Assembly (NCBI GenBank): GCA_013239625.1
Contig: MU053588.1
Coordinates: 2,924,508 to 2,988,507 of the forward strand
Source: Lama guanicoe
Taxonomy: Eukaryota
Reading direction: 5' to 3'
Length of the DNA: 64,000 nucleotides
The first letter of the stretch is position 1, and every line of letters starts with the position of its first letter. The notes below the pieces were generated by a model. That model was given only the letters and a program-made list of their open reading frames with translations. It made no database searches and was not told where the DNA came from. This document shows, piece by piece, positions 17,201 to 61,111 of this stretch. A program made the position numbers and the translations under genes.

Positions 17201-17490
17201 TCTGAGCACCTCCAAGACGTGTGCATGGGGTTTTATACGGTTAATTGCAAGAATGGGGCTATTAGCTAATAAGGCTCAAACAACAAAACGCAAGGAATCA
17301 TCTGTTTGGAACAGATCATGTTACTGACACTCGTTGACCTTGGATTTACGAGTTACCTTGTTAGCCTAGGAAACTAACACTACACTTCAGACTTATGAGT
17401 CAGCCCAGCAGAACTTATGTCAGTAAGCCGACACTTGTTACACTTAGATTTATGTGTTACATAGTTACCCAGTCCGGCTTTTCCTTTTCA
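14299..17490 (-). mobile_element. ERV copy A (gamma-like, Thr PBS): 5' LTR, leader, gag with ATXN7 insert, pol remnant; 3'-truncated
   Basis: LTR 17097-17490; MA motifs LCELEWPPFGVRWP and PGHPDQFPY. Confidence 0.92.
14688..15124 (-). pseudogene. ATXN7: Captured, spliced, circularly permuted ATXN7 fragment in gag (copy A)
   Basis: SERAAEDVRG, AMASVGERRPLPSPEAMLGQSW, VMGLCHEDMPVFGLCPAHNDF, KPQAFQSH match the ataxin-7 N-terminus; permuted order. Confidence 0.92.
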
Positions 17491-24565: not shown

Positions 24566-27500
24566 TGCCGCCACAGAATGGGGCACTTTTACATTTAAAG
24601 CCTGTCCCAGTGTGAGTTTATTTGCCTCGTGGACCAGGGGGCTGTGGCAGCGAGGGCCCGTAGACAGGGTGGCCATCCTGATGACACAGGGTCCAGTCTT
24701 TTAGACAAGTAGGCCATAGCGCGCTGCCATGGCCCCACAGTTTGAGCCAGGACTCCAAGAGAATGTCCCAGTCTGGTCTGGTGTCAGGGGCCCGTGTCAT
24801 GGCCCACCCCTCAACATCCAGCGTGTCCCTGGGGGCTCGGCCCTGCAGCCATTTTCATGCTTCAGTGAGAATGTGTCTCTTTTCCTCCGTCTGGCGAACA
24901 TCTTCCCGGGTGGGCCGGTGAGAATCAAAGACAGACTCTACGAGGTCGATCAGAGCCTGCGGTTTGACGGCCTGATTACAGTCATCACACACCACCAACT
25001 AGAAATCATTATGGGCTGGACAGAGACCAAATACTGGCATATCTTCGTGACAGAGCCCCATGACTGTCCCAGCATCGCTTCGGGACTGGGCAGGGGCCGG
25101 CGCTCCCCAACACTTGCCATTGCAGTGGTGGCGGTGGCAGTGGCAGCTGAGTTAGGTGGAGGCGGTGCCGGGGCTGCGGGGGCTGCTGCTGCTCCGCCTG
25201 CCACCACCGCTGGGCGGCCTGGCTCCCTCTGACGTCTTCCGCAGCCCGCTCCGACACTTTTTGTTCCTTTTCTTGGAGGGCAGGCCAAAAATCCTGACCG
25301 GTTTACCGGTGGCTCTTCATCTGCTATTAGTGTGGAAGCTCATCTTTTTAATTTTGTTTAGACCATGATGTGATTGAAATGCCTGTGGCTTTTCCCAGTA
25401 GGAAGGAGTATGATGGCACCAATTGGGAAGGGCTGTAGTGCTAAAGGGTTGGTAGCAGAGTACAGGGTGTCTGGGCTGGACAGTCCTGTCCTCCCCAGCT
25501 TGCTGTGGCCCTTGTGTCTCCCGCAGCGGCATTTGCAGGGCCGGCGGTGCTGCTCTCCCAGCTTGTGCTGAGCTGAGTCTCCTCAGGCTGTCAGCTCAGG
25601 CTGGGGGCTGGGCTCTGCCTCTGGGTCCTCAGGTTGGGGAGGTGGTGACACAGAGGGTGGCCGTGTCTCCAGTGGGACCGGAGGTGTTGGTGCCCCGGGG
25701 GCATACGGAGGGTACAGGCACATCTCGTCCTCTGTATCGCCCTGGAAAATATACTTTTCTCTACCTGTCCTTTTTATTTTTGTTTTGGGGGGGGTTGGCC
25801 TGGACCAGCTGAGCTGCTCATATGTTGCATTGTCCAGGTCCATTTGAGCAGAACCAGATCCATGGGGCAGATATTCTGGGCAATATTTAGCCAGGAGTTA
25901 AAGTAAGGGAATTGATCTGGGTGGCCTGGGGCTCCGGTGATTATTTGATAGATTGCTCGCACTATTGCTAGGTCCAAAGTTTCTCCTGAGGGCCACCTGA
26001 CTCCAAAGGGTGGCCATTCAAGTTCACACAAAGTATGGAGCCTGCCAGGGGTCATTTAAACTGTATAGTTTCCGGAGAACTCCTTTTTGAAATTTTCAAT
26101 CATGCAGTCCAGAAGTGTCAGCTTTGATTTAGAGGCTCTCATTATTATTAGCTGACAGATTTTATGGCCTACAGGTGTGGGTCTGCTCCTGGCACCAAGG
26201 ACTGGGACTCCAGTATTTCTGTTCTTGTTTTTTTTTTTTTTTCCACTCCTCAAAACAGTGGTTTTGTTTTGGTTTTGTTTTTGTTTTTTTAAACTCTGCT
26301 GCCTGGCTGGGCCTAATATCTATCTGCTTGGCTGGAAGAGCTGCCAGTGAGTTAGGGTTTCCCAGGAGGCACTTGTCCCAGAGGCTTCCCTGGGCCTGGA
26401 TGAGCTCTAGGGGGTCCCTGCACAAAGCCTTCTCTATAGCCTAAATTGACAAAATAAGAGGCTGGGATAGCCGGCCGGTGGCAGAATAAATGGACCAAAA
26501 GGGGACCTCAAGAGAGGGTTCCAGCCAGTCCTGGGGTAGCTCCCTGTGGCTCAGGTCTTGCCGGCTTAATTTTAGACAGAGGGGTACTATTGAGGCTGGT
26601 TTATTAACTGCGGCAAGATATTCCGGGAGTCTGGTAACAAAGTCGCGCCTGAAACTTTTTAAAGTAGCCTCGTTTTAGTCCCAGACGGCGCAGGGTCGCT
26701 TACTTATACGCTGTTTTATGTCTCTTTCCCTCCCAGTGTAGCCACCCAGTGTCGGTGTCGCAGACAAGACAAGGGAGGGTTTTCGCTCCATCCGCCTGGC
26801 CGCTCACCTCACGGGGACGAAGGTGCCTCTTAGCTTTGACGGGTCAGTGTAAGCCGCTGACTCGCATCGGGACCCTGAGGGACCGATACTGCCCCGAGCC
26901 GTATGAGGTCACCACAGAACCGCAGGTTGGGACTCACTCGAACTCCGTAGCACAATGCCGTGGAGCTACGAACTCGAGCCTGATCGCGTGCTTCACGGGA
27001 CTCACGTTCACTCACACACACACACGTGAACACCAGTCCTCCCACCAATCCCAATATCCTGTTTCCTGTAGGAGGGGACCAGCCTCCTCTTGTGTCCACT
27101 GGGACAGGACCTGACTTCTCCCCAGGGGTTCCTGCCTTGTCCGGACGGCCACCTGGTGAGTCTGTCCATCCCTCCACCCAGTCTGGCTCTGGTTGTAGCC
27201 CAGCCACACGGGGGCCCGAGTCGCCGCCACGAAAGACAACCCGGAATATCATCAGGCAGCACCACCTCGTTTGCTGCCGGAGCCCCGTCCCCCAATCGGC
27301 CGGAGCCACCAGTCCAGCGGCTCAAGGGGCCGGTGTAGTTGAACCTCCCTAGGGCCTCCAGAAATGTTACGGAAATGGCAGGCCAGCCAAGAAACAAACA
27401 CCACTCAGAGGGTTGGAGTACTCAGATTTATTATGCCGGTGCGCTCAGAGGGGCTTTTGCTCCGAAGCTCTGAGCACCTCCAAGACGTGTGCATGGGGTT

Positions 27501-27758
27501 TTATACGGTTAATTGCAAGAATGGGGCTATTAGCTAATAAGGCTCAAACAACAAAACGCAAGGAATCATCTGTTTGGAACAGATCATGTTACTGACACTC
27601 GTTGACCTTGGATTTACGAGTTACCTTGTTAGCCTAGGAAACTAACACTACACTTCAGACTTATGAGTCAGCCCAGCAGAACTTATGTCAGTAAGCCGAC
27701 ACTTGTTACACTTAGATTTATGTGTTACATAGTTACCCAGTCCGGCTTTTCCTTTTCA
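24566..27758 (-). mobile_element. ERV copy B (duplicate of copy A)
   Basis: Matches copy A apart from a 1-nt insertion at ~26245; LTR 27365-27758. Confidence 0.92.
24955..25391 (-). pseudogene. ATXN7: Captured circularly permuted ATXN7 fragment (copy B)
   Basis: Same as copy A. Confidence 0.92.
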
Positions 27759-33104: not shown

Positions 33105-33804
33105 ACCGGGTATATGTTTGCTGCAGTCTAAGCTCTGACTGGGTTTTAATGTAGAGAGGTGTGTAGAGTGGCAATTTAGAGAGCTCAGTGCCACTAAACA
33201 GAGAAGTTGAAAACAGCTCACAGTTGCCCTGCTGAGGAGAGGCACCGCACAGCACGCAGGGATCCAAGACAACTAAGGGTTTCAGTACAGCTGCGGAATA
33301 TAAGTAAAAGGGGAGGGCCTAAACCGGACCCGTCATTGTGTGGGTGGGGAAAGTACACAGCTGAACATTCCCACAGTAAATAACTAGGTGAGGTTTGGTA
33401 AAGGCACCATACTGATTATCCTTCTCTCACATTCAAGCACACTCTAAATTGATTTTAAACTGCATATGTCATTTATTGTCTCTCTCCTTCTTACTAACTT
33501 CCAGATTGGTACTTTATTTGGCCATATCACTACAAACACTACTTCTTTCTCTTCAAAAAGTCCCTACTTCCCACACTAAAAAACAAATTATACCCACACA
33601 ACACCATCAAGGTACTTTTAAACTAACAGAAGCAGTTACTTTTTGTTGTTGTTGTTCACAAATTTGAAATGAACAGACACAAATAAATTTCCACTGTAAA
33701 ATATATACTTAAACAACAGGTACAGGTCAGGCCCCTTCTGCTTATAAGTGCACAGGGCCTTTGTCACAAAACCTATAATTTATTTGTAATAATTCGACAT
33801 ATGT

Positions 33805-35749: not shown

Positions 35750-36218
35750 TGAGAAGGAAAAGACAGGCTGGGCTAACAAGCTAACTCATAAATCTAAGTA
35801 TAATGAGTGTCAGTTTACTTATTTCAGTTCTGCTGGGCTAACTTGTAAATTTAAATGTAATAAGTGTCGGTTTACTGATCTAAGTTCTGCTGGGCTAACT
35901 CGTAAATCTAAAGTTTAGTAAGTGTCGGTTTACTGGGCTAAAAAGCTAACTCGTAAATCCAAGCTCAACAATGTCAGTAACGTGATCTGTTCCCACTAGA
36001 TAAGTTCCAGGGTACTGATTCCTTGCTTTTGCTGTTCGCGACTTATTGGCTAATAGCCCCATGGTTGTAATTAACCCTATGAAACCTCATGCACGTGTCT
36101 TGGAGGTGCTCAGAGTTTCAGAGCAGAAGCCCCTCTGAGCCCACCGGTGTAATAAATCTGAGTACTCCAACCCTGTGAGTGGTGCTTGTTTCTTGGCTGG
36201 CCTGCCATTTCTGTAACA
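35750..36218 (+). mobile_element. Solo LTR of the ATXN7-carrying ERV family
   Basis: TGAGAAGGAAA...GTAACA; matches 49250-49657 and 59761-60174. Confidence 0.92.
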
Positions 36219-41420: not shown

Positions 41421-42679
41421 GCTTAAGTATTGATCCTGTCTTAATCACTGGTGTATCAGAGGAGTTTTGGTGCCCAGGTGTTTTTGATAAAAAAAACACT
41501 TTCTAGTTTCTTCTTAATATTTTCTCAAGGCTATTTAATTAGAAAAACCAGCAGAACCAGCATGAATAAGCAAAGGAAACAGAGCAGAGTTAAAGCCAAG
41601 GGAACAAATCTAATGTGGCGTAAGATATGTTTTTCCCTATTACAGTATCAGCAGTAGCACTACAGGTTACTTCACATCATCTATCCATTTTACACATGTT
41701 TAATCTTGTGTTAAATTTTTGATTTAGCATTTACAACTTATACTAATTAGTTTTTTCTTCATTCATAATTACTTAATTTATCTTATAGCTACTTTATTCA
41801 TTTTTTAATACCTTGTTATTGATGTCTTAGTATTTGTCTTTATTATAAAATTTTATGAATTTCTTCAGCTTGGATTATGTTTTACTTTCTTCTGTCACTT
41901 GATATCATGTATTTTTTTCTATTGCATTTATTAAACTCATGTTATTGCATTGTGGTACCCATTTTTATTTGTTTTAACATATTTCCTATCATTCTGAATA
42001 CATATGTCAAATTATTACAAATAAATTATTATAGGTATTGTGACAAAGGCCCTGTGCACTTATAAGCAGAAGAGGCCTGACCTGTACCTGTTGTTTAAAT
42101 ATATATTTTACAGTGGATATTTATTTGTATCTGTTCATTTCAAATTTGTGAACAACAACAACAAAAAAAGTACCTGCTTCTGTTAGTTTAAAAGTACCTT
42201 GACGGTGTTGTGTGGGTATAATTTGTTTTTTAGTGTGACAAGTAGGAACTGTTTGAAAATAAAGAAGTAGTGTTTATAATGATATAGCCAAATAAAGTAC
42301 CAATCTGGATGTTAGTAAGAATAAATGACACATGCAGTTTAAAATCAATTTAGAGTGTGCTTGAATGTAAGAGAAGGATACCATGCTACAGTTATTAGTA
42401 TTGTGCACTTACCAAGCCTCGCCTGGAATTATTTACTCTGGCAATGTTCAACTGTGTGCTTTCCCCACCCACACAATGACGGCTGCAGTTTAGGCTCTCT
42501 GGTCTTATCTATCTTCCCCAGTTGTGCTAGGGATTTTAATTGCCTCTACTCAACAGGGGAACTGTTAATCGTTTTTAACTTGTCTAATTATGGCATTGAC
42601 CACTATAAATTGTCACGTTAGACACCTCTAAAAATTAAGACCCAGTCAGAGCCTAGACTGAAGCAAACAGATACTCACT

Positions 42680-42988
42680 ATGCTGATCAAGGACGCGATC
42701 TTTTCATTTATAAAAGACTTACCCCTACAATTTCTGGAGCATATGATGTGGACATTTCTAGAGGAAAAGGTGATGCTACTTTTACAAGAGAATTTAACAG
42801 TTCAAAATACCATGTTAAATGAATACATGAGATGGATTTGTCTGTATGCAGTGAAAACTACTCTGACCTTTCTAATCCGGAAAATGGCTGCTGTTATCAA
42901 AAACTTGTTTATGGGAAACATTCTACAAAACATCCCATATTTCTTTAAGAAGGAGCGTCGTGAAGCAACATGTGTATATACAGTTTAA
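42680..42988 (+). CDS. Putative 102-aa protein of unknown family, type II
   Basis: Acceptor TCTATCTTCCCCAG at ~42520, ACTATG Kozak, AATAAA 43203-43208; 67/102 aa identical to type I by hand count, no indels. Confidence 0.55.
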   Translation: MLIKDAIFSFIKDLPLQFLEHMMWTFLEEKVMLLLQENLTVQNTMLNEYMRWICLYAVKTTLTFLIRKMAAVIKNLFMGNILQNIPYFFKKERREATCVYTV

Positions 42989-43202
42989 AAGAAATTATAA
43001 AGGCATATGGAAATTATGTCCAATCGTTGAATTATCCGTGCCTTCCTCGTTGAATCTCAAAGGAAAAGATCAAATACGTTACCAACACAAGCAGAATATA
43101 GGCATGATTGGAACAATTGCTGAAAGTTATTTTCTTTAATCGAAATCAGCTTTCTTCGAATTTTGACAAATTCGCTTGCTGAAGAAATTTGAGACGGACT
43201 GA

Positions 43203-43208
43203 AATAAA
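43203..43208 (+). terminator. PolyA signal of the type II gene
   Basis: AATAAA followed ~25 nt later by GT-rich TCTGTTTGTGTGGTG. Confidence 0.55.
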
Positions 43209-44008
43209 GCTGTTGCGAAATGGCATGCTGTCTATGGTCTGTTTGTGTGGTGAGAGCTGTTGTGGGTTTTGGTGGGCTGTGGCACAGGCGGTAAAAGAAG
43301 CTTCCAGACACAAAGAAAAGTTGAATAGCTGCGCTGCTACAGGCAAGAGTGGGCCACAGAGACGGGAGGTGACCGTGTGCGCGCCGGGGTGACCGTGCTG
43401 GGTGTTTTTTTGAGGAAAGGGCTGCGAACCCAGAGGGATGGCGGAGCGTGGTCATGCCGTGAACAGATTTCTGATTGGCTACAAGTGAGGTACGGGGCTT
43501 TGGTGCATGGCAAGGCAGTGGGATGTGTGACTCGCAAAAGATGGAGACAGAGGGTTGAGACAGACCAGGTCCTCTTGACTTTTCATTGTCTGTTTAGACA
43601 TTACCCAGGGCAGTTAATCCTGCTAGGGTTGGTCGGTGTGACTCAGAAAGGAATGTACTTTGTCTTGTGAAGAGGAGAAGGCAGATGCCTAATGGCTGGA
43701 AGTTTGGGGGTCGCAGGGCCCAGGCTGGCAGCGCTTGGCACCACAAGATCTGTCCGGTGTCCAGCCCCAGGATCTCTGCCCTGGACCCTAGAGGGGGTAG
43801 ATAGAGAGGACTTGTTTGGACTTTAATATTGGGGACCAGCAGAGGGTCCCATTGACCATTGACTTATTTAAGCTTACACAGCATAGTATCAAAACTTGAA
43901 TTTTAATCTGTAAATGTCTGTTTTATTTACCCCACTTTCAATAAGCATCTAGAGGTTTTTTTTTAATCCATTTGAGATCAGTCCCTTTAAAATCATCAGT
44001 TTTTTTTT

Positions 44009-44169
44009 NNNNNNNNNNNNNNNNNNNNNNNNNNNNNNNNNNNNNNNNNNNNNNNNNNNNNNNNNNNNNNNNNNNNNNNNNNNNNNNNNNNNNNNNNNNN
44101 NNNNNNNNNNNNNNNNNNNNNNNNNNNNNNNNNNNNNNNNNNNNNNNNNNNNNNNNNNNNNNNNNNNNN
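44009..44169. other. Assembly gap (N run)
   Basis: 161 Ns. Confidence 1.
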
Positions 44170-47100
44170 TTCGGAGCAGAAGCCCCTCTGAGCCCGCTGG
44201 CCTAATACATCTGAGTACTCCAACCCTCTGAGTGGTGCTTATTTCTTGACTGACCTGTCATTTCTGTAACATTTCTGGCGGCCCCAGCAAGATACAACCA
44301 CGCCGGCCCCTTGAGCCGCTGGACTGGTGGCTCTGGCTGACCGGGGGACGGGACTCCAGCAGCGAACGAGGTGGCGCCGCCCGACGGTATTCTGGGTTTT
44401 CCTTCGGCAATTCGGCCCCCGGGTGGCTGGGCTGGGCTACAACCAGAGCCAGACTCCGTGGAGGGATGGACAGACTCACCAGGTGGCCGTCCGGACAAGG
44501 TAGGAACCCCCAGGAGGAATCAGGTCCTGTCCCAGTGGACAGAAGAGGAGGCGGATCCCCTCCTACAGGAAACAGGATATTTGGATTGGTGGGAGGACTG
44601 TTGTTAACCTCTGTGTGTGTGAGTGAGCGGCCTGTGAAGCACGCGATCAGGCTCGAGTTTGTAGCTCCATGGCATTGTGCTACGGAGTTCGAGTGAGTCC
44701 CAACCTGCGGTTCCGTGGTGACCTCATATGGCTCAGGGCGCTATCGGTCCCTCAGGATCCCGATCGGAGTCAGCGGCTTATACTGACCCGCCAAAGCTAA
44801 GAGGCACCTTCGTCCCCGTGAGGTGAGCGGCCAGGCGGATAGAGCGAAAACCCTCCCTTGTCTTGTCTGTGACATCGGCATAGTGTGGCTACACTGGGAG
44901 GGAAAAGGACATAGACAGCCAATGAGTCAACGCCCCTGTGCCCTTAGAGTCTAGGATGCTATTTCTTTGAGAAAGTCTCCGATCTTACTCTCACAAAACA
45001 CCTGAGACTTATTGTTCCCCTACTGAACTGACCCAAGTAGTGCCCCTTTTGCCTAGCCCAGGACTCAAGTTTAGAAGACGAATTCCTTCAGGACCAGGCT
45101 CACCTGGCCTTGAAGGTCCTTTTTCTAGTCTATTTGTTTCACCATCCACCATCAGTCCCACGCCCCTGATACATTAGTTCAGGATATAGAGAGGATTTAA
45201 TGAAGAAAGTCCCTGGAACTGCTTGAGGCCTTGAGCTCCAGAGACATCAACTGTGACTGGAGCCCAGACTCCCTGACCAAATTAGCCTTCAAACAACTCA
45301 TAGACCCAGCAGGAGAGCAGTCTCTCTTGGAACTCCTGGGTTTTGAGGAATGAAGAAAGAAAAGATACAAAGGCTACCTTCCCAAACATCTAAAAAGAAT
45401 GGGAGGCTCTAAGTCAAAACCCACCACTCTAGACTGCATGATTAAGAATTTCAAAAAGGGTTTCTCAGGGGATGATGGAATTCGAATGACCCCTGGCAGG
45501 CTCCACACTTTGTGTGAGCTTGAATAACCAGCCTTTGGAGTCAGGTGGCCCTCAGGAGGAACTCTGGACCTAGCAACAGTGCGAGCAGTCTATCAAATAA
45601 TCACTGGAACCCCAGGCCACCCAGATCAATTCCCTTACATTGACTCCTGGCTGAATGTTGCCCAGACTCTACCCCCATGGATTCGGTTCTGCTCAAATGG
45701 ACCTGGACAATGCAAGATATGAGCAGCTCAGCTGGTCCAGGCCAAAAAGGACAGATTTAAAAAAAAGCCTATTTTCCAGGGAGACACAGAGAACAAAATG
45801 TGCCTGCCCCCTCCGTATGCCCCCGGGGCACCAACACCTCCAGTCCCACTGGAGACAGCCACCCGCTGTGTCACCACCTCCCCAACCTGAGGACCCAGAG
45901 GCAGAGCCCAGCCCCCAGCCTGAGCCGGTAGGAAGGAGACTCCGGTCAGCACAAGCCAGGAGGCCAGCACCGCCGGCCCTCCAAATGCTGCTACAGGAGA
46001 CACAAGGGCCACAGCAAGCTGGGGAGGACAGGACTGTTCAGCCCAGACACCCTGTACTCTGCTACCAACCCTTTAGCACTACAGCCCTTCCCAATTGGTG
46101 CCATCATACTCCTTCCTACTGGGAAAAGCCACAGGCATTTCAATCACATCATGGTCTAAACAAAATTAAAAAGATGAGCTTCCACACTAATAGCAGATGA
46201 AGAGCCACCGGTAAACCGGTCAGGATTTTTGGCCTGCCCTCCAAGAAAAGGAACAAAAAGTGTCGGAGCGGGCTGCGGAAGACGTCAGAGGGAGCCACAC
46301 CGAGCGGTGGTGGCAGGCACAGCAGCAGCAGCCCCCGCAGCCCCGGCACCGCCCCCAACTCAACTGCCGCCACCACTGCAATGGCAAGTGTCGGGGAGCG
46401 CCGGCCCCTGCCCAGTCCCGAAGCGATGCTGGGACAGTCATGGGGCTCTGTCACGAAGACATGCCAGTATTTGGTCTCTGTCCAGCCCATAATGATTTCT
46501 AGTTGGTGGTGTGTGACGACTGTAATCAGGCCGTCAAACCGCAGGCTCTGATCGACCTCGTAGAGTCTGTCTTTGATTCTCACCGGCCCACCCGGGAAGA
46601 TGTTCGCCAGACGGAGGAAAAGAGACACATTCTCACTGAAGCATGAAAATGGCTGCAGGGCCGAGCCCCCAGGGACACACTGGATGTTGAGGGGTGGGCC
46701 ATGACATGGGCCCCTGACACCAGACCAGACTGGGACGTTCTCTTGGAGTCCTGGCTCAAAATGTAGGGCTATGGCAGCACGCTATGGCCTATTTGTCTAA
46801 ATGACTGGACCCTGTGTCATCAGGATGGCCACCCTGTCTACGGGCCCTCGCTGCCACAGCCCCCTGGTCAATGAGGCAGACAAACTCCCACTGGTACAGA
46901 CTTTAAATGTAAAAGTGCCCCATTCTGTGGTGGCTCTGAAAAACGGTCCAGATTACAAATGGATAACTAACACAAGGATGACCCACTACCAGGGGCTTCT
47001 ATGTAAAAATTCAAGAGTCCGTCTAGAGACTGTGCAAACTTTAAACTCAGCCACATATTTGCCTGAGGAGGAAGGGCAGCCTGACTATGACTGTAAGGAA

Positions 47101-49657
47101 ATCTTCAAGGAAGTGTATGTGAGTCTGCAAAAGCCAGACCTGAAAATTTTCACAAACAGCAGCAGTTACATGCAGGATGGACAACGGCGAGCAGGTTACG
47201 CTGTAACAACAACCCGAGAGGTAATAAAGACAGAGTCCCTTCCCCCAGGATGGTCTGCTCAGCGAGCAGAGATTTGGGCAGTGGTGCAGGCACTAAAGGA
47301 AGGGAAAGGAAAATGAATCAATATATACACGGATTCCAAATATGCATTTGCAACCTTGCATGTACATGGAGCCATCTGTAAGGAGAGAGGACTCTTCACT
47401 GCTGGGGGAAAGGAAAGGAAAAACAAAGAAGAAATTTTAGTTACTGGAGGCAGTATGGGGTCCCCAAAAAAGTGGCCACTATTCACTGTAAGGGACACCA
47501 AAAAGGAAATGACCCTGTGAGCCAGGGGAACAGGCTGGCTGATCAAAAGGCAAGAGAAACAGCCACCAGGGAACACCCAGTAATTAAAATTATGGCAGTG
47601 CCAGAGCTCCCCACTGCCCCAGAATATAGCCACGACGAAAACAAGTGGGCACAGGGTGAAGAAGGAAAGAAAAGAAAGGATGGATAGTGGATCATGATGT
47701 ATAGAAGGGTTTTCATCCCAGAAGGACTAGCTTATTGTATAGTCCAGCAATACCATGAAGCCACACATACGGGAAAAACAGCTTTGGAGGCCCTCCTAAA
47801 GCGATAGTTCCTGATTTATCATCTCCCTGCTCTGTGTGCATCAGTCTCCCAACACTGCTTGCTCTGTGCTCAAAACAATCCAAAACAAGGGCCCACTGGG
47901 CCAACAAGAATACAACGATTCGGATTGACTCCCTTTCAAAATTTAAAAGTGAACTTTACTGAACTTGGGTACAGTAAGGGATATAAGTACCTGCTGGTTT
48001 TCATCTGCACCTTCACAGGGTGGGTAAAACCTAACCCACCAGGACAAAAAAAGCAAGGGAGGTAACAAAGGCTCTCCTCAGGGGTGTCATCCCTCAGTTT
48101 AAAATGCCTACTTCCATCGAGACTGACAACAAACCCACCTTCATGGCAGAGATTGTACAGCAAGTGGCAAAGACACTAAAAATCTGCTGAAACCTACACA
48201 CAACATACCGGCCTCAAAGCTCAGGGAAGCTGCTAAAGCTGCACTAATCATCCCTTGGATCCACTACTCCAGGGTTAAGAGAACGACTTCACCTCAGACA
48301 AAGGGTCTCTGGAGAATTGAGAACATCCCAGGAGACCCGCTCAAGATCAAGATCAAGAAGGACCAGAAAAAGATCGATGAGCCCTGCTCTAGCCACATCC
48401 AGAAGCTGGCTAGTCAACACACGGCCAAAGCTTGAGAAAAGGTCAACAAAACTGTTAAATATATTCCTCTTGTGCTCCCTTGCCTCTTTCCTTGTTTGCT
48501 ATACTAGCCTGTGTATTAGCAGTGGGGCTGGCCAGCACCACCCCTCCTGACTGGAATATAGGCCATAGGATCCTGATAGCTATTATATACCTTGTTATAA
48601 CTAGTGCCATCACTGCAGCATTATGTCTAAGATAATCATAAGGCTGATGTTACTGACGCTAATGCCCTCACTCCCCTTGCTAGCGGGACTCAGAATAACA
48701 GCAGGGGTAAACACAGAAATTGGTGGCATAGCTTCATCCTCTTATTACTATTACCAGCTTACAGGTGAGTTCAGCCAGGATCACCAATGAGTAACAAAAA
48801 CCCTGGGAGCTCTGCAAAGCCAGATTGACTCTCTGGCCAAGGTGGTCTTACAAAACAGGAGGGGTCTTGACCTACTGAAGGCCAAAGAGGGGGGACTATG
48901 CCTCTTCCTAAACGAAGAGTGCTGTTTTTATGCCAATCAATCAGGAATTGTCAGAGGGATGATTCAAGAGTTACAAGACAGAGTGGAAAAGAAAACACAT
49001 ATTTTAGACAAGAGCCCATGGACAGGCCCATGGGGCTGGACCTCCCGGCTAGCATTGTTCATAAGTCCCTTGCTCCTGATTTTTGCAGTTCTGCTATTTG
49101 GGCCCTGTATCCTAAACTTCTTGACCCGCTTTGTCCGTGAGCGGATAGAGGTTATAAAATTTCAAACGTTAGCCTCCAATTATGAGCCCTTGCAACAGAT
49201 AAGTGATGATGCTTACTCCAAGAGTTGTGAAAGCATGAAGAGGGGGGAATGAGAAGGAAAAGCCAGGCTGGGCTAACAAGATAACTCATAAATCTAAGTG
49301 TAATAAGTGTCAGTTTACTGATCTAAGTTCTGCTGGGATAATTCGTAAATCTGAAGTTCAGTGTCAGTTTACTGGGCTAACAAGCTAACTCGTAAAACCA
49401 AGCTCAACAAGTGTCAGTAACGCGATCTGTTCTGAATTGATAAGCTCCAGTGTACTGATTCCTTGCTTTTTGTTGTTTGAGCCTTATTAGCTAATAGCCC
49501 CATACTTGTAATTAACCGTATAAAACCCCCGCACAAGTCTTGGAGGTGCTCAGAGCTTCGGAGCAAAAGCCCCTCTGAGCCCAGCGGTGTAGTAAATCTG
49601 AGAACTACAACCCTCTGCGTAGTGCTTGTTTCTTACTGGACTGTCATTTCCGTAACA
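44170..49657 (+). mobile_element. ERV copy C: partial 5' LTR (to 44271), PBS, gag with ATXN7 insert, deleted pol, deleted env, 3' LTR 49250-49657
   Basis: RNase H RAGYAVTT..SAQRAE; IN fragments; TM motif VLQNRRGLDLL...CLFLNEECC; PPT GAAGAGGGGGGAA. Confidence 0.95.
46126..46546 (+). pseudogene. ATXN7: Captured circularly permuted ATXN7 fragment (copy C)
   Basis: Same motifs; putative back-splice junction 46153|46154. Confidence 0.92.
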
Positions 49658-52014
49658 AGAGGATAAATTTTCTTAAAATGTTAATCCGCCTTCAGTAATG
49701 GATTGTAAAGTTTCTTTTACCCCATAAGTTATCTGTTCTGCATTTACCTTTGAAATATTTTCTTGTTAATGAATAAATAGTTTTTCACATTAATCTATGC
49801 TTTTACCTGACCAAATGTTTCGAAACCTTTAAACAAGCTTCCTAAATATCAAATTTTGATTAGAGTTCTTTTGACCTCCAGTTAACTTTGGGATGCTTCA
49901 AAGGGCCCCTGAAACATGTCAAAGAGAGTTATTAAACTAACTAGACATACTTGGTATGTTAAATTACTTTTAAAAAATTGCCAAGTAATTCGAGATAAAA
50001 CTTTGACTATATTGTGGAGATAAAAGTCACTAATATAGTTATACAAAAATCTAATACGTATCTGTCTTAATTCTAATTTTACCTTGAAATTTTGTATGTC
50101 AGAATATCCATGTTGCTTGTCAATTTCATTCTAATCTAATCTTTAACCATGTCATTTTAAGTCTTGTCATTTATATAAACACATTGTTTTACTCAGGTTT
50201 TATAAAATGAAAATCTTCAGGAAAATTTATTTAAAAAGGGACTTTTAACCAAATATGTTCCTAATAACTAACTTTTATATCATACCCACTGAACTGGGTA
50301 AATTATAAAACTCTAATGGAAGCCTGATGAATTCATCCAGATAAACAGAAATTAATTACATGGAATTGAATTAACTGAAAAATATGATAGATAATCTTAG
50401 TTTTCTTTTTTGAGGTTTTTGAGAAACATATTGGCCTTTATGCTTTATTTTCCAAAATAACCCTTTACTCTTATTCTATAACCTACAAGTTGATAAAGTA
50501 CACCTTTGTAGACAATGATGAAACATCTTTCTCTCTCTACTTGATCATTCCAGAATTTAACTTCTCTAGCTGACTCCCCTGAGGATTTGAGGGTTATTGA
50601 AACCAGATTACAATTAGTTATACAGATCATTGTTTTAATTTTGTTTTTGATTCCAAATTGTTATGCTTTCTATGACTTTATTAATGTTACAAAGTGTATT
50701 ACTACTTTTACTATTTTATAAGATTATTCTTAACTTTCCCAATGTGTGACTTGGTGTCCAACAAGATTGATGATGGCTAAACATCTTAAAGAAACAGAGC
50801 ACAATTATAACCCTACATAGAATAATTGTAATAGTGTGATTTTAGTTATAGGAATGAGCAACAAGTGGTAAACATTTCCTGGATCATAATAGGCTAGTAA
50901 GACAGGTTGTGAAGGAAAAGCCGGGCTGGGCTAACAAGCTAACTCTCAAATCTAAGTATTGGAATACTGATCTGAATTCTGCTGGACTAATTCGTAAATC
51001 TAAGGTAATTAGTGTTGGTTTGCTGATTCCCTGTTCATGTTTTTTGGGGTTTTTTGTTTTGTTTTGTTTTGTTTTTTTGTTTTTGCTAGCCAGCTTGATT
51101 TTCAAAGAGATATATCTGGTTTTGGAATGTTGGTTTGCTGCCTCCCTGCCTCCACCTTTGTGATAATGATGCTGCTAAAGCTCTTCCACACCTATTGGCC
51201 AAATACCCCAAGCCTGTACTTTACCCTATAAAACCCCATGCACACGTCTTGAAGGTGATCAGAGCTTCGGAGCAGAAGCCCCTCTGAGCCCACCGGCGTA
51301 ATACATCTGAGTACTCCAACCGTCCCAGTGGTGCTTGTTTCTTGGCTGGCCTGTCATTTCCGTAACAAGATGATCCAGAGAGTTTCTAATATCAACAGGG
51401 CGTGATCCAAAAACTATCACTTTGAGTGGTGTGTCAACAGAATCTTCGCCTGATCTAGGAATGAAATGGGACAAAATTGGTCATGAAATGTCTCCCAAAA
51501 TATTGGTCGAATTTAGGACTAAGTGGGATCACTGTGAATGAAAAATACTGCAAACCATATCAGTAGACAAAGAATGCTGAAGCCATCAAGTCATCAGCCA
51601 CTGCTGCCACCCCCCCACTGTGAAGACAAGTCTGCAGCCTGGCCTCTGCAGCCACTCACAATGGTGCACTCTGAGGGGACTCAGAATAATAAAGGACAAG
51701 ATACTGGCCCTAGATAGCTAGATGTTTGTCAAAGGAATGAATTCAATGAGCCCAAATGTTTGCTTCCTCCCATACATAGAAAAGCACTAAATTCTTTAAG
51801 TTGAGATGCCTGTTTTTCTTTAGATAACAAGGAATTTTTTATTGTTCCAACTACCTGGTCTTTGTTGTAAAGCTCCTATATATTCTAGCACCTCCCCTAC
51901 CTCTTTGGAGCAGTCCCACAGAGCCGATCTGAGAGGCTGTCATCCTGGCTCGAGTCCTCCCACCAAATAAAAGTAACTCTCAACTTTTAGGCTGAGCATT
52001 TATTTTTGTTGACA
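49658..52014 (+). mobile_element. 3' internal region and LTR (51533-52014) of another ERV family, interrupted by a solo LTR
   Basis: AT-rich internal sequence, LTR TGTGAATG...TTGACA with AATAAA. Confidence 0.65.
50908..51367 (+). mobile_element. Solo LTR related to the ATXN7-ERV LTR (variant U3)
   Basis: TGTGAAGGAAAAGCCGGG...CGTAACA; 4-bp TSD-like AGGT/AGAT. Confidence 0.9.
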
Positions 52015-52358
52015 ATCGGTAGTGACGATCCTGTGGTGGGCCAGTGTGCTGTTTGAGAGCTCAACATCTAAGCTTTTCCCCCAGAGTGGTCTCCGTTACC
52101 TCTCATGTGTAATCAACAGAGTGGGTCTCCCTTACAGGTCTTGGCTTCTACCACTCCTGCAGGTTTCTCACTCACCAGAAAAAGCCATTGCCGGCCAGGA
52201 GAGTCTTGTCTTCTGTGTAGAGTTTCAGTTTTACTGATTAAAAAAGGACCAGAGACATGTTGCACAACGAGAATATATAGACAGCCACTGAACTATACTT
52301 GGCTTAAGGGTTATGTCTTTTATGATAATGAAAGATTTTCAAGGGAAAAATTTGCGGT

Positions 52359-52857
52359 TGTTGACTGAAATAAATGCACAGCCTAAAAGTTGAGAGTTAT
52401 GTTTTATTTGGCAGAAATTTCTGAGGGCTTGAACTCCTTTGAGCCCAGATGACAGCCTCTCAGGTCGCTCTGAGAGGCTGCTCTAAAGAGGTAGACAAGG
52501 AGGCAGAATATATAGGAGTTTTACAACAAAAACCAGGTAGTCAGAACATTAAAAGATTACTTGTTAACTGAAGAAAACCAGACAAATTAAAGAATTTAGC
52601 ATTCTTCTTTGTGAGGGAGGGAGCAAACATTTGGGCTCACTGAATTCATCCCTTTAACAAGCACCTAGCTATCTAGGGCCAATATCCTGTCCTTTCTTAT
52701 TCTGAGTGCCCTCAGAGTGCACCATTGTGAGTGGCTGTAGAGGCCAAGGCTGGGCTGTGGGCTTGTCTTCACTGGGGGGTGTCAGGAGCAGCTGATGACT
52801 TGATGGCTTCAGCATTCTTTGTTTACTGGTATGGTTTACAGTGCTTTTCTGCTCACA
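52359..52857 (-). mobile_element. LTR, same family as 51533-52014, opposite strand
   Basis: Reverse complement starts TGTGAGCAGAAAAGCACTGTAAACCATA. Confidence 0.8.
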
Positions 52858-53370
52858 GGCTTTAAGATTCTTGGGCTTTTGAGAACCTCAGGCCTTGAAG
52901 GGGAACTTCTGGGTGTGGTAAGCACAATGTGTGGGTGGTTTGAGGTTTCATTTCCTGTTTCCAATCAGCCTGTTGCAGCCTTGGCTGGTTCCTCTTGGGG
53001 CCTCTGATTCCCTCAAGAGCCCAAGATGGGGGCAGAGGCTCAAAGCTACAGTGATTATGCTGAGCAGAGGGGCCAAGGTGGGAGGAGAGAGCTGGGGTTT
53101 GAGAGATGGTTAGAGGACAAGAGTGTGGATGGGAGGGGGTAGGTCAAAGGATTGAAGAGAACTGAGGAGGCTGAGGAGGCTAAGCTGTAAAAGAAAGGGT
53201 TAATGAGGATCAGGGATGTTGAAGAGGAAGCCAGCTTAGATGAGTCCCGAGGGTAGTTCCTATGTCTGTCACCCTGTGTGGTCATTGAGGTTCCTCTTGT
53301 ATTTAAGAGAAGTTTGCCTTTTCTGAGTGGTGCTTGTTTCTTGGTTGGCCTGTCATTTCCATAACATTTC

Positions 53371-53388
53371 TGGAGGCCCCAGCAAGAT
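53371..53388 (+). promoter_or_regulatory. Primer binding site, tRNA-Thr (degenerate copies at 44276, ~17075-17092 and ~27343-27360)
   Basis: TGGAGGCCCCAGCAAGAT just after the LTR; resembles the complement of the tRNA-Thr(TGT) 3' end TGGAGGCCCCAGCGAGAT (recalled). Confidence 0.75.
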
Positions 53389-55255
53389 TCAACAACACCA
53401 GCCCCTTTAGCCGCTAGACCGGTGGCTCTGGCCTACCGGGGGACGGGACTCCGGCAGCAAACAAGGTGGCGCCACCCGACGGTGTTCTGGGTCTCTTTCA
53501 TGATGGCAACTCAGCCCTCCCAGGTGGATGGGCTACAACCAGAGCCAGACTGGGTGGAGGGATGGACAGACTCACCAGGTGGCCGCCTGGACAAGGTAGG
53601 AACCCCTGGGGAGAATTCAGGTTCTGTCCCAGTGGACAGAAGAGGAGGCGGATCCCCTCCTACAGGAAACAGGATATTGGGATTGGTGGGAGGACTGTTG
53701 TTAACCTCTGTGTGTGTGTGTGAGTGAGCGGCCTGTGAAGCACGTGATCAGGCTCGAGTTTGTAGCTCCACGGCATTCCGCTACGGAGTTCGGTTGAGTC
53801 CCAACCTGTGGTCCTGTGGAGACCACATATGGCTCAAGGCTGTATCAGTCCCTCAGGGTCCCGATCAGAGTCAGCGGCTTATACTGACCCACCAAAGCTA
53901 AGAGGCACCTTCATCCCCGTGAGGGGAGCGGCCAGGCGGACGCAGTGAAAACCCTCCCTTGTCTTGACTGCGACACCAGCACAGGGTGGCTATGCTGGGA
54001 GGGAAAGGGACATAAAACAGCCAATGAGTCAATGCCCCCTGTGCCCTCAGAGGCTAGGATGCTATTTCTTTGAGAAAGTCTCCTACCTGACTCTGTCACA
54101 GAACACCCGAGACTTATTGTTCCCCTACTGAACTGACCCAAGGAGTGCTCCTTTTGCCTAGCATCAGACCCCCAGGATTTGACTTTAGAAGATGAATTTC
54201 TTCAGGACTGGGCTCACCTGGCTTTGGAGGTCCCCTTTCTAGTCCATTTGTTTTGCCATCAGCCATCAGTCTCATGCCCTTGGGCTAGGATATAGAGAGG
54301 ATTTAGTGAGGAAGCCCCTGGAACTGGTTGAGGCCTTGAGCTCCAGAGACATCAGCTGTGACTGGAACCCAAGCTCCCTGACCAAATTAGCCTTCAAATG
54401 ACTCATAGAGCCAGCAAGAGAGTAGTCTTTCTGGGAACTCTGGTGTTTTGAAGAGTGAAGAAGGAAAAGATATAAAGTCTACCTTCCCAAACACCCAAAG
54501 CAACAGCTCTATTATCCTTAAACATCTAGACAGAATGGGAGGCTTGAAGCCGAAACCCACCATCCTAGACTGCATGATTAAGAATTTCATAAAGGGGTAT
54601 ACAGGAGACTATGGAGTTCGAATGACCCCTGGCAGGCTCCGCACTTTGTGTGAGCTTGAATGCCGACCTTTGGAGTCGGGTGGTCCTCAGGAGGAACTCT
54701 GGACCTAGCAGCAGTGCAAGCAGTCTATCAAATAATCACTGGAACCCCAGGCCACCCAGATCAATTCCCTTACACTGACTCCTGGCTGAATGTCGCCCAG
54801 TCTCTACCCCCATGGATTCGGTTCTGCTCAAATGGACCTGGACAATACAAGATATTAGCAGCTCAGCCAGTCCAGGCCAAAAAGACAGATAGAGAAAAGA
54901 TTATTTTCCAGGGAGACAGAAAAGATGAGATGTGCCTGCCCCCTCTATGCCCCAGGGCACTGACACCTCGCATCCCACTGGAGACACTGCCACCCTCTAT
55001 GTCACCACCTCTCCAGCCTGAGTACCCAGAGCAGAGCCCAGCCCCCAGCCTGAGCCGGTGGGAAGGAGACTCCACTCAGCACAAGCTGGGAGACCGGCAC
55101 CACTGGCCCTCCAAATGCCACTGCGGGAGACACAAGGGCCACAGCAAGTTGGAGAAGACAGGACTGTTCATCCCAGGCACCCCATACTCTGCTACCAACC
55201 CTTTAGTACTTCAGACCTTCTCAAGTGGTGCCATCATACTCCTTCCTACTCTGAA

Positions 55256-55467
55256 AAACCACAGGCATTTCAATCACATTATGGTCTAAACAGAATTAAG
55301 AAAAAGAGATTCCACAAGAATAGCAGATGAAGAGCTATTGGTGAACCGGTCAGAATTTTTGGCCGCCCTCCAAAGAAAAGGAGCAGAAAGTGTCGGAGCG
55401 GTCCACGGATGACATCAGGAGAGCCCCCAAGTGGTGACAGCGAGTGGATCAGCAGCCGCGGCCGCCT

Positions 55468-55501
<34 letters not shown>

Positions 55502-55708
55502 CCAGCACAGCCTCCACCTCGGCTGCTGCCGCCGCTGCCGCAATGGCATCTGTCGGGGAGCACCAGCCCCTGCCCAGTCCTGAAGCGATGCTGGGACAGT
55601 CATGGGGCTCTGTCATGAAGACATGCAAGTATTTGGTCTCTGTCAAGCCCATAATGATTTCTAGTTGGTGGTGTGTGACGACTGTAATCAGGCCGTCAAA
55701 CCGCAGGC
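55256..55708 (+). pseudogene. ATXN7: Captured circularly permuted ATXN7 fragment (copy D), retains the CAG tract
   Basis: KPQAFQSHY|G junction at 55283|55284; (CAG)10; ASTSAAAAAAMASVGE; ends CNQAVKPQA. Confidence 0.93.
55470..55499 (+). repeat. (CAG)10, homologous to the ATXN7 polyQ tract
   Basis: GCCGCGGCCGCC-TAG-(CAG)10 in the ATXN7 context. Confidence 0.9.
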
Positions 55709-57220
55709 TCTGATTGACCTCGTAGAGTCTGTCTTTCATTCTCACCGGCCCACCTGGGGTGTTTGCCAGCTGCTTCTGACTCTTTTCAATACAGAGGAAA
55801 AGAGACACATTCTCACTGAAGCATGAAAATGGCTGCAGGGCCGAGCCCCCAGGGACACACCGGATGTTGAGGGGTGGGCCATGACACGGGCCCCTGACCA
55901 GATTGGGACTTTCTCTTGGAGTCCTGAATCAGAATGTGGGGCCATGGCAGTGCCCTGAGGCCCATTTGTCTGAAAAACTGGACCCTGTGGCACAAGTTAT
56001 GGCCACCCTGTCTACAGGCCTTCGCTGCCACAGCCCCCTGGTCAACGAGGCAGACGAACTCACGCTGGGACAAACTTTAAATGTAAAAGTATCCCACTCA
56101 GTGGTGGCCCTGATGAATGACCCCAGTTACAAATGGATAACTAACACAAGGATTACCCACAACCAGGGCTCCTACGTAAAAATCTAAGAGTTCATCTAGA
56201 GACTGTGCGAATCTTAAACCCAGCCACATATTTACCCAAATGGGAAGGGCAGCCTGACCACAACTGTGAGGAAATCATCGAAGAAGTGTACGCAAGTAGG
56301 CCTGATCTAACCGACAAGCTCCTGCAAAACCCAGACCTGGAATTCTTCACAGACAGCAACAGTTATGTGCAGGATGGAAAACGGCCAGCAGGTTACACTG
56401 TAACAACAACCCAAGAGGTGAAAAAGGCAGAGTCCCTTCCCCCAGGATGGTCTGCTCAGAGAGCAGAGATTTGGGCACTGTTCCAGACACTAAGGGAAGG
56501 GAAAGGAAGATGAATCAATATATACACTGATTCCAAATATGCATTTGCAACCTTACATGTACATGGAGCCATTTATAAGAAGAGAAGACTCTTGACTGCT
56601 GGGGGGAAAAAATCAAAAACAAAGAAGAAATTTTACAGTTACTGGAGGCAGTATGAGATCCAAAGGAAGTAGCCATTATTCACTGTAAGGGACATCAAAA
56701 AGGAAATGACCCTGTGAGCCAGGGGAATAGGCTGGTTGATCAAAAGGCAAAAGAGGCAGCCGCCCGGGAACACCCAGTTATTAAAATTATGGCAGCACCA
56801 GAGATACCCACTATCCCAGAATATAGCCACGACAAAAACAAGTGGGCACAGGCCAAACAAGGGAAGAAAGAAAAGGATGGATGGTGGATCATGATGGATA
56901 GAAGGGTTGTCATTCCAAAATGACTAGCTTATCGCATAGTCCAACAACAACACAAAACCACACATATGGAAAAAATGACTTTGGAGGTCCTCTTAAAGCG
57001 ATATTTCCTGATTTCTTGTCTCCCTACTCTGTGTGCATCAGTCTCCCAACGCTGCTTGCTCTGTGCTCAAAACAATCCAAAACAAGGGCCCACTTGGCCA
57101 AAGGGAGTACAACGACGTGGATTGGCTCCCTTCAAAGATTTAGAAGTGGACTTTACTGAACTTGGGCTCAGTAAGGGATAAAAGTACCTGCTGGTTTTCG
57201 CCTGCACCTTCACAGGGTGG

Positions 57221-58045
57221 ATGGAAGCCTACCCCACCAGGACGGAGAAAGCAAGGGAGGTAACAAAAGCTCTCCTCAGGGAGGTCATCCCTCGGTTTGG
57301 AATGCCCACCTCCATTGCATCTGACAGTGGACCCGCCTTCATGGCAGAGATTGTACAGCAAGTGGCAAAGACACTGAGCATCCGCTGGAACCTACCCACA
57401 GCATACCGGCCTCAAAGCTCAGGGAAGGTAGAAAGAATGAACAGAACTCTAAAACAAATGATAGCTAAAATGAGCCAAGAAACCCAGCTCCCCAGGGTGG
57501 ACATTTTACCCCTGGCTCTGTTGCAAATTAGATGCACCCCAAGATTTAACATTGGGTTCGCTCCCTTTGAAATCCTCTATGGGCAACCACCACCTTTAGT
57601 CAGGGTGGGAAATCCCACCCCAGAGATAGGAAATATAGGGCCCGACCAACAACCAGTGGGACTAGGACAAGTACTATGGGAAGTTTGGGGTTGGGTAATA
57701 GAGAAAACCCCCATTTTGTTAGGAGTCCAAGTGCATCCCCATAAACCAGGTGACCAAGTATGGGTGAAGGATTGGAAAAAGGAACCTCTCAAACCAACAT
57801 GGAAGGGACCATATTTAATGGTATTAACTACCCCTACATCTGTTAAAGTTGCAGGGATCATCCCTTGGATCCACCACTCCAGGGTTAAGAGAGTGACTTC
57901 ACCTCAGACAGAGGGTCCCTGGAGAATTGAGAGCATCCCAGGAGACCTGTTCAAGATAAAGATCAAGAGGGACCAGAAAAAGATCGACGAGCCCTGCTCT
58001 AGGCACACCTGGAAGCTAGCTAGTCAACACACGGCCAAAGTTTGA
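57221..58045 (+). pseudogene. pol: ERV integrase, C-terminal 274 codons open (N-terminal part broken by a stop at 57179-57181)
   Basis: SDSGPAF, YRPQSSGKVERMNRTLK, WKGPY, WIHHSRVK. Confidence 0.9.
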
Positions 58046-58256
58046 GGAAAGCTCAACAAAACTGTTAAATATATTCCTCTTGTGCTCCCTTGCCTCTTTC
58101 CTTGTTTGCTATACTAGCCTGTGTATTAGCAGTGGGGCTGGCCAGCACCACCCCTCCTGACTGGAATATAGGCCATAGGATCCTGATAGCTATTATATAC
58201 CTTGTTATAACTAGTGCCATCACTGCAGCATCATGTCTAAGATAACCATAAGGCTG

Positions 58257-59763
58257 ATGTTACTGACGCTAATGCCCTCACTCCCCTTGGCTTCACAATG
58301 CACCTGCACTGAACCAGGTGACATATCGTCCATGTACCGATGTGTATATTCAGCTTATACTTATCAACCAAGCTGATGCTATGACTCCGCTTCAGAGTGC
58401 ACATATCAGGGCAGATCCTACTGGACTGGCATGATTAAGGCTTATTATGTATCTGTCATCAAGTGCTATGGCACACCAGACAAGCTAGTGTGTTGGACCA
58501 AGCAAACACATTATGGGATGAGTGATGGAGGAGGAGTACAGGACCAGGCATGCTGACAAGTAGTCCAACAAGCAGTCCGGAGGCAACACCAAAAGTTATT
58601 ACCTACCTGGGAGCCAATAAAGCTTCTATCTTTAGCCGAGCCTCAGGATCTAGACCCACAAATAGATGAGCTGTTGGCTGCAGTCCATGGGATTCTCAAT
58701 CATTCCAATCCAGACATGGCTAAAGATTGCTGGTTATGCTTACATCCTGGCCCCATCCAGCACCTGGCTTTACCTTTGACAAACTTCACTAAGACTTTCA
58801 CTATGACTAATAGCGATGCTGCCTCTACCACTAGGAGTTCCAGGCTGAACTCCATACAGCTCACCTACAAGGCACCAGAATGTTATTTCAATAATGGAAC
58901 TAATCCTTTAGAGGGCAATCTAACTATAAAACAATGTATTAAAACCTCACACTATATGGGTCTAGGGTGCCAACCCACACAAGGATGCTGTTCTAATAAT
59001 GGTACTTATTTTGTGTGTGGCAAATTTGCCTACCAGTGCCTCCCGGCTGGTTGGGCAGAGTTATGTGCTTTAGCTTATCTCATTCCCTGAATGGACATTA
59101 TGCCTAATAATCAAAGTCTGCCTATCCCTGTCATAACTCACCAGCATCCATGAAGGATAAAATGACCCATACAACTGATCCCCTTGCTAGTGGGTCTCGG
59201 AGTGGCAACAGGGGTAGGCACAGGAATCGGTGGCAAAGCCTCATCCTCTTATTCCTATTATCAGCTTACAGGTGAGTTCAGCCAAGATCTCCAATGAATA
59301 GCAGAAACCCTGAGAGCTCTGCAAAATCAGATTTGACTCTCTAGCCAAGGTGGTCTTACAAAACAGGAGGGGTCTGGACCTACTGATGGCCAAAGAGAGG
59401 GGAATGTGCCTCTTCCTAAATGAAGAGTGCTGTTTTTATGCCAATCAATCAGGAATTGTCAGAGGGATGATTCAAGGGTTACAAGACAGAGTGGAAAAGA
59501 GGAAGCATATTTTAGGCAAGAGCCCAAAGACAGACCCCTGGAGCTGGATCTCCTGGCTGGCACCGTTCACAAGTCCCTTGCTCCTAATTTTTGTAGTTCT
59601 GCTGTTTAGGCCCTGTATCCTAAACTTCCTGACCCGCTTTGTCGGTGAGCAGATAGAGGTTATAAAACTCCAGATGTTAGCCTCCAATTATGAGCCCTTG
59701 CAACAGATAAGTGATGATGCTTACTCCAAGAAAGGTTGTGAAAGCATCAAGAGAGGGGAATGA
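58257..59763 (+). pseudogene. env: Gamma-type env pseudogene
   Basis: GMSDGGGVQD, CWLC, fusion peptide LIPLLVGLGV, LQNRRGLDLL, CX6CC; several stops. Confidence 0.9.
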
Positions 59764-60174
59764 GAAGGAAAAGCCGGGCTGGGCTAACAAGCTAACTCAT
59801 AAATCTAAGTGTAATAAGTGTCAGTTTACTGATCTCAGTTCTGCTGTGCTAACTCATAAATCTGAAGTTTAGTAAGTGTCAGTTTACTGGCTTAACAAGT
59901 TAATTTGTAAATCCAAGGTCAACAAGTGTCAGTAACACGATCTGTTTCTACAAGATAAGTTCCAGTGTACTGATTCCTTGCTTTTGCTGTTCACGCCTTA
60001 TTGGTTAATAGCCACATCCTTGTAATTAACCCTATAAAACCTCATGCACACGTCTTGAAGGTGCTCAGGGCTTCAAAGCAGAAGCCCTTCTGAGCCTGCT
60101 GACATAATAAATCTGAGTACTCCAACCCTCCAAGTGGTGCTTCATTTCTTGGCTGGCCTGTCGGTTCCGTAACA

Positions 60175-61105: not shown

Positions 61106-61111
61106 TAAGTA

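Follow-up and report, generated by a model that had tools for sequence, protein, structure and literature searches.

A permuted ataxin-7 insert in deleted gamma-like proviruses of Lama guanicoe: helper-assisted integration, local DNA copying or both

How does a defective retrovirus that carries host sequence come to be present several times in one short stretch of DNA? This question is raised by a 64,000-nt stretch of the Lama guanicoe genome (assembly GCA_013239625.1, contig MU053588.1, positions 2,924,508 to 2,988,507), in the following called the window. Most of this mammalian DNA consists of remnants of endogenous retroviruses (ERVs) and L1 elements. Comparison of the window with itself revealed four related proviral copies, designated A, B, C and D, which contain an insert matching ataxin-7 and lack a large part of gag and pol. 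An earlier examination of the letters alone (the sequence-only reading) proposed that this chimera had spread after capture with the aid of a helper virus and that old segmental duplication could have contributed. Our analysis gives an even chance to a mixed model, in which a small and old burst of helper-complemented integrations was followed by local duplication and conversion. Due to the clustering and conversion in the window, a purely DNA-level spread is nearly as likely.

The insert was recognized by its similarity to ataxin-7 (E 7e-16 in PDB; E 3e-12 in another search) and comprises 410 nt in C (46137..46546, + strand), 442 nt in D (55267..55708, +) and 426 nt in A (15113-14688, - strand). 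It is flanked by two copies of an 11-nt word coding for KPQA. In C, the left copy is located at 46126..46136 (+), and the right copy (46536-46546) closes the last piece of the insert; the left repeat of D is found at 55256-55266. Compared to the ataxin-7 protein (P0001), the insert starts with residues 146-153/154, continues with 97 nt without a protein match and proceeds with residues 2-83 and 113-149. This means that a downstream coding piece precedes the leader and the N-terminus, and the exon order is non-colinear. The resulting permuted junction (46153|46154 in C, 55283|55284 in D) was detected in all four copies, compared to 0 matches expected from 100 shuffles, which confirms the earlier claim that the copies have the insert in common. 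In C, a 17-nt piece is followed by the junction and by a 97-nt leader exon, exon 3 starts at 46251, exon 4 ends at 46458, and a piece of 88 nt completes the insert. The start of exon 3 and the end of exon 4 were placed using published primers that span the human exon 4-3 back-splice. The end of exon 4 continues directly into the next codons; the insert is intronless, and neither of its ends has an A-tract that would indicate poly(A). The pieces to the left and to the right of the opening total 105 nt in all three sequence types (A, C and D). On the viral side, each of the 8 related Gag proteins has just one KPQA and reads on as capsid behind it. None of the 47 profile hits extends past query residue 163, and the switch from virus to host is at residue 161. 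An internal deletion of about 30 ataxin-7 codons (46439|46440 in C, 55601|55602 in D, 14795|14794 in A) is found in all copies and represents a second mark of their common descent. In the ataxin-7 repeat region, the insert of D additionally contains 15 consecutive AGC units (55468-55511), which are not present in this form in A and C.

Where did the insert come from? Since it is permuted, intronless and located between two copies of an 11-nt virus/host homology, it likely represents one full turn of a circular ATXN7 RNA composed of exons 2-5. We take ATXN7 exon 5 to be 105 nt long and to end at the permuted junction, where exon 2 would start. Both switch points show LTR-element sequence (LTR, long terminal repeat) and microsimilarity in the form of the KPQA word. 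In the proposed mechanism, the reverse transcriptase (RT) would have left the viral RNA at the 11-nt homology in the capsid, made one round of the circle across the back-splice junction and switched back at this 11-nt homology, which would thereby have been doubled. The capsid would then have been dead and the chimeric RNA mobile only as a passenger. The gag frame hits a stop about 20 codons into the insert, so that the chimera is unable to make capsid. A linear transcript with repeated exons, originating from trans-splicing or genomic exon duplication, would yield the identical permuted junction, and Dong et al. (2016, PMC4897178) mention other routes to non-colinear junctions, too. However, entry and exit at one position and one exon set apart are the direct outcome of a circle, and a matching human circle, circATXN7(2,3,4,5).1, is catalogued in PMC13313202. 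We regard a linear donor as quite improbable.

Which virus took up this RNA, and what did it lose? The remnants match profiles of Gag MA, Gag p30, RNase H, rve, MLVIN_C and TLV_coat as well as MLV-type capsid, RT and integrase chains. The LTRs have TG...CA termini, and a primer-binding site and a polypurine tract are present. On these grounds, the element is classified as a probable class I, gamma-like ERV; the labels tRNA-Thr and HERV-T-like presumably apply to it. One and the same join of capsid to RT was found in all four copies. It is located at 46737..46740 (+) in C, at about 55910..55913 (+) in D and near 14497 (-) in A, in agreement with the sequence-only reading, which had placed a shared deletion from mid-capsid to the RT connection region at about 46740 and 55912. 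The left side of the join corresponds to Gag p30 (PF02093 positions 17-70 of 201 and slightly beyond; MLV capsid residues 36-87), the right side to the RT connection region starting from residue 356/652 in 4mh8_A and 385/681 in 4hkq_A. The C-terminal part of the capsid, the nucleocapsid (NC), the protease and the polymerase core are absent, while LTR, primer-binding site and polypurine tract are retained. Hence, the earlier statements that NC, protease and RT core were removed and that the cis signals were kept proved correct. The host insert breaks an essential viral gene in an element with preserved cis signals, among them a putative packaging signal. Every retained gene in all copies contains stops or frameshifts. 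As the element is Gag- and Pol-defective, re-integration of any kind required proteins in trans.

How many of the four copies count as integrations? Copy A (14300..17490, -; 5' LTR 17490-17097) is truncated at 14300, and copy B (24567..27758, -) is its duplicate within a tandem unit of 10.27 kb. Between A and B, 0 substitutions and 1 gap column were found in 3192 columns, and the two 10.27-kb units are distinguished by no more than 6 mismatches, which are confined to the first 500 nt. Both copies represent one locus, duplicated as DNA together with its flanks. Copy A is also related to C in an unusual manner. Within the tract 46000..46760 (+) of C, the two are only ~1% apart, and they share an identical run of 260 nt (expected count near 1e-12). 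The numbers of private changes in A/C/D are 39/26/40 in the early leader, 183/39/35 in the late leader, 34/19/35 in MA-p12, 11/6/88 in the insert block and 7/7/20 after the block. An insert block ~1% from C within a body that is 10-33% away points to gene conversion. Since the non-viral flank is a mosaic, too (0-22% divergence), DNA-level conversion is the likely cause, and A is not countable as an independent integration of the chimera. It was also considered whether A had arisen from retroviral recombination with a young helper; this was rejected, as the MA of A is itself decayed and the non-viral flank is also mosaic. For the late leader of A (16494-15900, -), which is 33% away from C and D, the window contains no other full match; this leader therefore derives from another subfamily. 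A second identical run, of 179 nt, connects C and D (48443..48621, +; expected count near 2e-7) and is likely due to gene conversion as well.

Copies C and D are a different matter. C (44170..49657, +) is a deleted gamma-like provirus with insert, and its 5' end meets an assembly gap of 161 N (44009..44169), which conceals its 5' junction. D (53322..60174, +) has insert and deletion as in C, and only the last 45 nt of its 5' LTR are left. Both end precisely at their 3' LTR (49250..49657 and 59761..60174, both +). The flank behind C has no second match in the window, and that behind D is unrelated to it. C and D differ at 622 of 5392 sites (11.5%). The window offers at most two separate integrations, C and D, and not four. 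The earlier claim that the copies differ in leader, LTR, other deletions, flanks and many substitutions was not confirmed throughout: A and B are a single locus, and 260 nt are identical between A and C. A common integration site and flank, named beforehand as the sign of mere duplication, is found for A and B, whereas C and D have unrelated 3' flanks.

The multiple copies could for the most part be an artefact of the assembly of one or two loci, as A and B are identical, the B unit contains further perfect internal duplications and a gap precedes C. The distance of 11.5% between C and D, the C-type and A-type junctions on separate contigs in independent runs, and the greater depth of the A type compared to single contigs (see below) make this explanation highly improbable. 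Near-perfect internal duplications of the B unit are found at 28028-31210 and 31488-33285 (1571 and 897 extra nt) and are possibly assembly overlaps; a third partial unit is located at 33805-35649.

When did the copies arise? Outside the tract and the leader of A, 80/52/95 private changes (A/C/D) were counted at 1315 sites, i.e. the divergence is star-like. LTR distances are 16/101 and 7/46 within copies and 23/101 and 14/102 between copies (Fisher p 0.28 and 0.70). As the within-copy distances match those between copies, the copies split at about the time when they integrated. Dating by LTR divergence, which the sequence-only reading had suggested, places the integrations of C and D at roughly 12-40 million years, an estimate that depends on two published rates (PMC13297096 and PMC8605555) and on small, CpG-rich samples. 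With these rates, the A-C tract is dated to 1-2 million years. The differences between C and D are distributed over the codon positions as 50/39/53 (p 0.32), without a third-position excess. This count includes 3 of 5 segments; MA and the N-terminal part of integrase (IN) were left out because of mis-set or broken frames. Such a pattern is as would be expected for a non-coding passenger. A dN/dS of 0.46-0.80 for C and D was discarded as transition bias, as an out-of-frame segment gave 0.43.

Further junctions were found in public contigs from related organisms. Of the 24 runs listed, 14, with four organism labels, contain 33-44% of the words of the 3' part of C; five RNA runs share 0.05-0.11 of the words and provide no evidence of expression. 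The region 46620-46850 was compared with 185 contigs from four runs, and the following figures refer to the 32 listed of these 185. Eight of the 32 bridge the deletion with at least 31 letters on each side. They belong to the C type (X1, X2), the A type (X2, X12), a type E (X10, X12) with 18-22 differences and 5 gap letters (the junction itself accounts for 4 of these), and a type F (X2, X12) with 9-10 differences. Four additional contigs cross the deletion with 21-30 letters on one side and represent the A type twice and the types G and H. Together with D, this amounts to 5 junction types by strict and 7 by lenient counting, 6-12% away from C. Identity of E with D was rejected (net gap 5 letters vs 7), and the D type was not among the 32 contigs listed, which is no evidence of absence. 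The junction types are dominated by contigs of undeleted relatives with depths of 340-2160. Contigs continue into other sequence behind 46736 in all four runs, and contigs entering from other sequence before 46740 are among those listed for X10 and X12. The summed depth falls sharply between 46736 and 46740 in three of the four runs. This drop and the divergent contigs are what abundant undeleted relatives would give, and the junction-bearing lineage appears to be small, old and common to related species. The A-type junction contig has depths of 159, 53.9, 53.8 and 71.6 in the four runs, several-fold above most of the neighbouring contigs. It carries the diagnostic differences of A, and in X12, its match ends where A is truncated. 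Its depth, which is not a copy number, hints at a real DNA amplification of the A unit. A genome-wide search with a literal junction motif had been proposed before; this motif is present in one of the four copies (D), and A, B and C differ from it by one base. The junction pattern had 0 matches in viral contigs and 0 in metagenome contigs, collections that are not expected to contain the host.

Do these data speak for spread by integration? The many types have a similar depth of divergence, equal to the age of the LTRs, which gives the appearance of a short burst; proteins in trans would have been necessary for it. Complementation by a helper is what we infer; abundant undeleted relatives are what was observed. 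The earlier proposal of a spread with a helper is supported in part, namely by the distinct 3' junctions of C and D, the star-like divergence and the additional junction types in the public contigs, but reduced by the maximum of two integrations in the window, the duplication of A into B, the probable conversion tract in A and the clustering. The history may have been as follows: By template switching, a gamma-like ERV would have picked up one full turn of a circular RNA from ATXN7, and it would have lost most of gag-pol. A few re-integrations with proteins from intact relatives would have followed in a short burst about 12-40 million years ago, yielding C, D and perhaps other junction types. 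About 1-2 million years ago, the C block would have been copied into A, and the A unit would then have been tandemly amplified. For the capture in its full form, i.e. RT jumping to a host circle, making exactly one turn and jumping back, and the Gag-Pol-less passenger then colonizing the germ line several times with a helper, the chances are somewhat short of even.

A number of observations weigh against repeated integration. C and D are spaced by 3664 nt on the same strand. If integration were scattered, one pair of this kind would be expected with a probability of 0.0002-0.13, assuming 7-12 loci, 10-100 kb and a 1- to 20-fold local enrichment. Three of the 5-7 junction types are found within 46 kb, and the copies are far more tightly clustered than is expected from scattered integration. 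No insert-bearing copy retains both of the ends at which a target-site duplication would be seen. There is no consistent pairing of 5' and 3' LTRs within a copy: One LTR site unites the two LTRs of C, others unite the 5' LTR of A with the 3' LTR of C, or the 5' LTR of C with either a solo LTR (S2) or the 3' LTR of D. Neutral divergence is equally expected under DNA duplication. The types E-H were recorded at the deletion junction (46620-46850), and the gaps of type E at this junction may indicate that the deletion recurred. Finally, DNA-level copying of both viral and non-viral sequence is demonstrated in the array itself, in line with the earlier remark that segmental duplication could contribute, and the flank before the gap of C is that of A.

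Two explanations dispense with a helper after the capture. According to the first, there was a single integration, all copies arose from it by old tandem or segmental duplication, and later LTR-LTR recombination provided D (or C) with a new 3' flank. Tight clustering, the A/B duplication and the A-type contig, which in all 4 runs has a several-fold greater depth than the contigs next to it and whose match in X12 ends at the truncation of A, fit this scenario. So do two solo LTRs of the family, S1 (35750..36218, +) and S2 (50908..51367, +, between C and D), and the pre-gap flank of C (42000..44008, +), a paralogue of the upstream flank of A (21068-19054). The last ~800 nt of these flanks are identical, and farther out they are 12-22% apart, as deep as the proviruses. 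However, an extra LTR exchange is required, and neither solo LTR in the window supplies the flank of D or C. Moreover, LTR distances from copy to copy are not smaller than those within a copy, and a junction shared by C and A would require 1855 nt in the gap before C, which comprises 161 N, although gap sizes are unreliable. A single integration is, in our estimation, rather unlikely. According to the second, the block of insert and deletion hopped by conversion into neighbouring resident proviruses of the abundant parent family, without packaging. Copy A provides a direct precedent, as its tract shows 11/6/88 private changes (A/C/D), whereas its leader is at a distance of 33% from C and D. 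In addition, the 179-nt tract links C and D, and clustering and distinct flanks would be explained together. However, the C-D distance in the block (88/754) equals that in the body (622/5392), so a transfer to D would be as old as the integrations, and E-H are unexplained unless they are neighbours, too. Block hopping is, in our estimation, still less probable than the single integration. On balance, the mixed model of an old burst and later local copying keeps its even chance.

The other features of the window can be described briefly. The 5' LTR remnant of C (44170..44271, +) is followed by the primer-binding site (44276-44293), a gag remnant with stops and frameshifts (MA, p12 and the start of the capsid; 45399..46136, +), and pol and env remnants (RNase H, part of IN, env TM; 46740..49249, +), which have deletions private to C at 48229|48230 and near 48679. 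In D, an integrase remnant (rve, MLVIN_C; 57182..58045, +) precedes a broken env that extends to 59760. The U3 region of the family LTR contains a 57-nt tandem unit of variable copy number (2.7 in S1, 35780-35935). Between C and D, an inverted pair of an older LTR type is located (51540-52018 and 52355-52849, 80% alike), and the 5' LTR of A is embedded in a copy of this type. One type of old repeat (69% alike) contains both the 3' flank of D (60176-61005) and the upstream flank of A (18239-19045), which are offset by ~750 nt relative to each other and have opposite proviral orientations. A CpG-rich, gene-like block is found upstream of A, B and C (19054-21068, 30893-33804 and 42000-44008). It encodes an open reading frame (ORF) of 158 aa, of 108 aa in the third paralogue, for which searches of Pfam, homologues and Atlas yielded no match; the paralogues combine parts of 0% divergence with parts of 12-22%. 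By eye, two L1 elements were recognized (1-5570, 5630-9360 and 61107-64000): One interrupts an older ERV gag-pol remnant, and the other is present with its 5' end.

How does the element compare with known systems? Pseudogenes derived from circular RNAs (circRNAs) are already known; what is new here is the clean anatomy of a single turn, which suggests a mechanism. The open-access literature yielded no report on the capture of ATXN7 or on a mechanism by which one turn is captured. For mouse circRFWD2, 33 pseudogene copies with MMERVK10C-int sequence are reported by Dong et al. (2016, PMC4897178). They resemble the copies described here in a back-splice junction fixed in the genome, the lack of poly(A), surrounding ERV internal sequence and several copies. 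In contrast to them, 5-7 types and a class I virus are found here. Furthermore, one full turn lies between a doubled homology, whereas the mechanism of the circRFWD2 pseudogenes is called unknown there. A double template switch on a circle is expected to leave one point for both entry and exit, two copies of the homology, and relatives whose site is empty. As the insert has kept such marks, the route can be tested on the mouse circRFWD2 copies and in vitro. If the reading is true, the element would be a fossil showing how circRNA-derived pseudogenes arise and amplify. LTR-mediated retrocopies, which Tan et al. (2016, PMC5131818) treat as non-autonomous elements, likewise combine host RNA with an LTR element, microsimilarity at both switch points and possible further rounds in trans. 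Their donors, however, are linear mRNAs, the string 'circ' being absent from the main text of that paper, and repeated rounds were deduced from dispersed sites; here, the 3' junctions are clustered, 3.7 kb apart. The standard of proof is set by recKoRV1 of the koala with its dispersed sites and target-site duplications (Lober et al., 2018, PMC6112702). It is also a defective gammaretroviral recombinant with breakpoints shared by many loci, and its authors weigh remobilization against recurrent formation. Unlike in the element described here, its filler is another retroelement, its loci are dispersed, and it is less than 50,000 years old. Where duplication and conversion act, shared deletions and different flanks can mislead as proof of retroviral spread. 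Simian sarcoma virus with its helper SSAV represents the defective transducing retroviruses (reviewed in PMC13297096), and the sequence-only reading had drawn the parallel to such gammaretroviruses. It stands as far as host sequence breaking an essential gene, loss of gag-pol, preserved cis signals and the need for a helper are concerned. It fails at the captured gene: Transducing viruses express it, whereas the ataxin-7 frames are shifted, stopped and internally deleted in every copy, with no benefit evident. Since no host reading frame is kept, the element resembles a defective transducing virus in the way it works, without being one.

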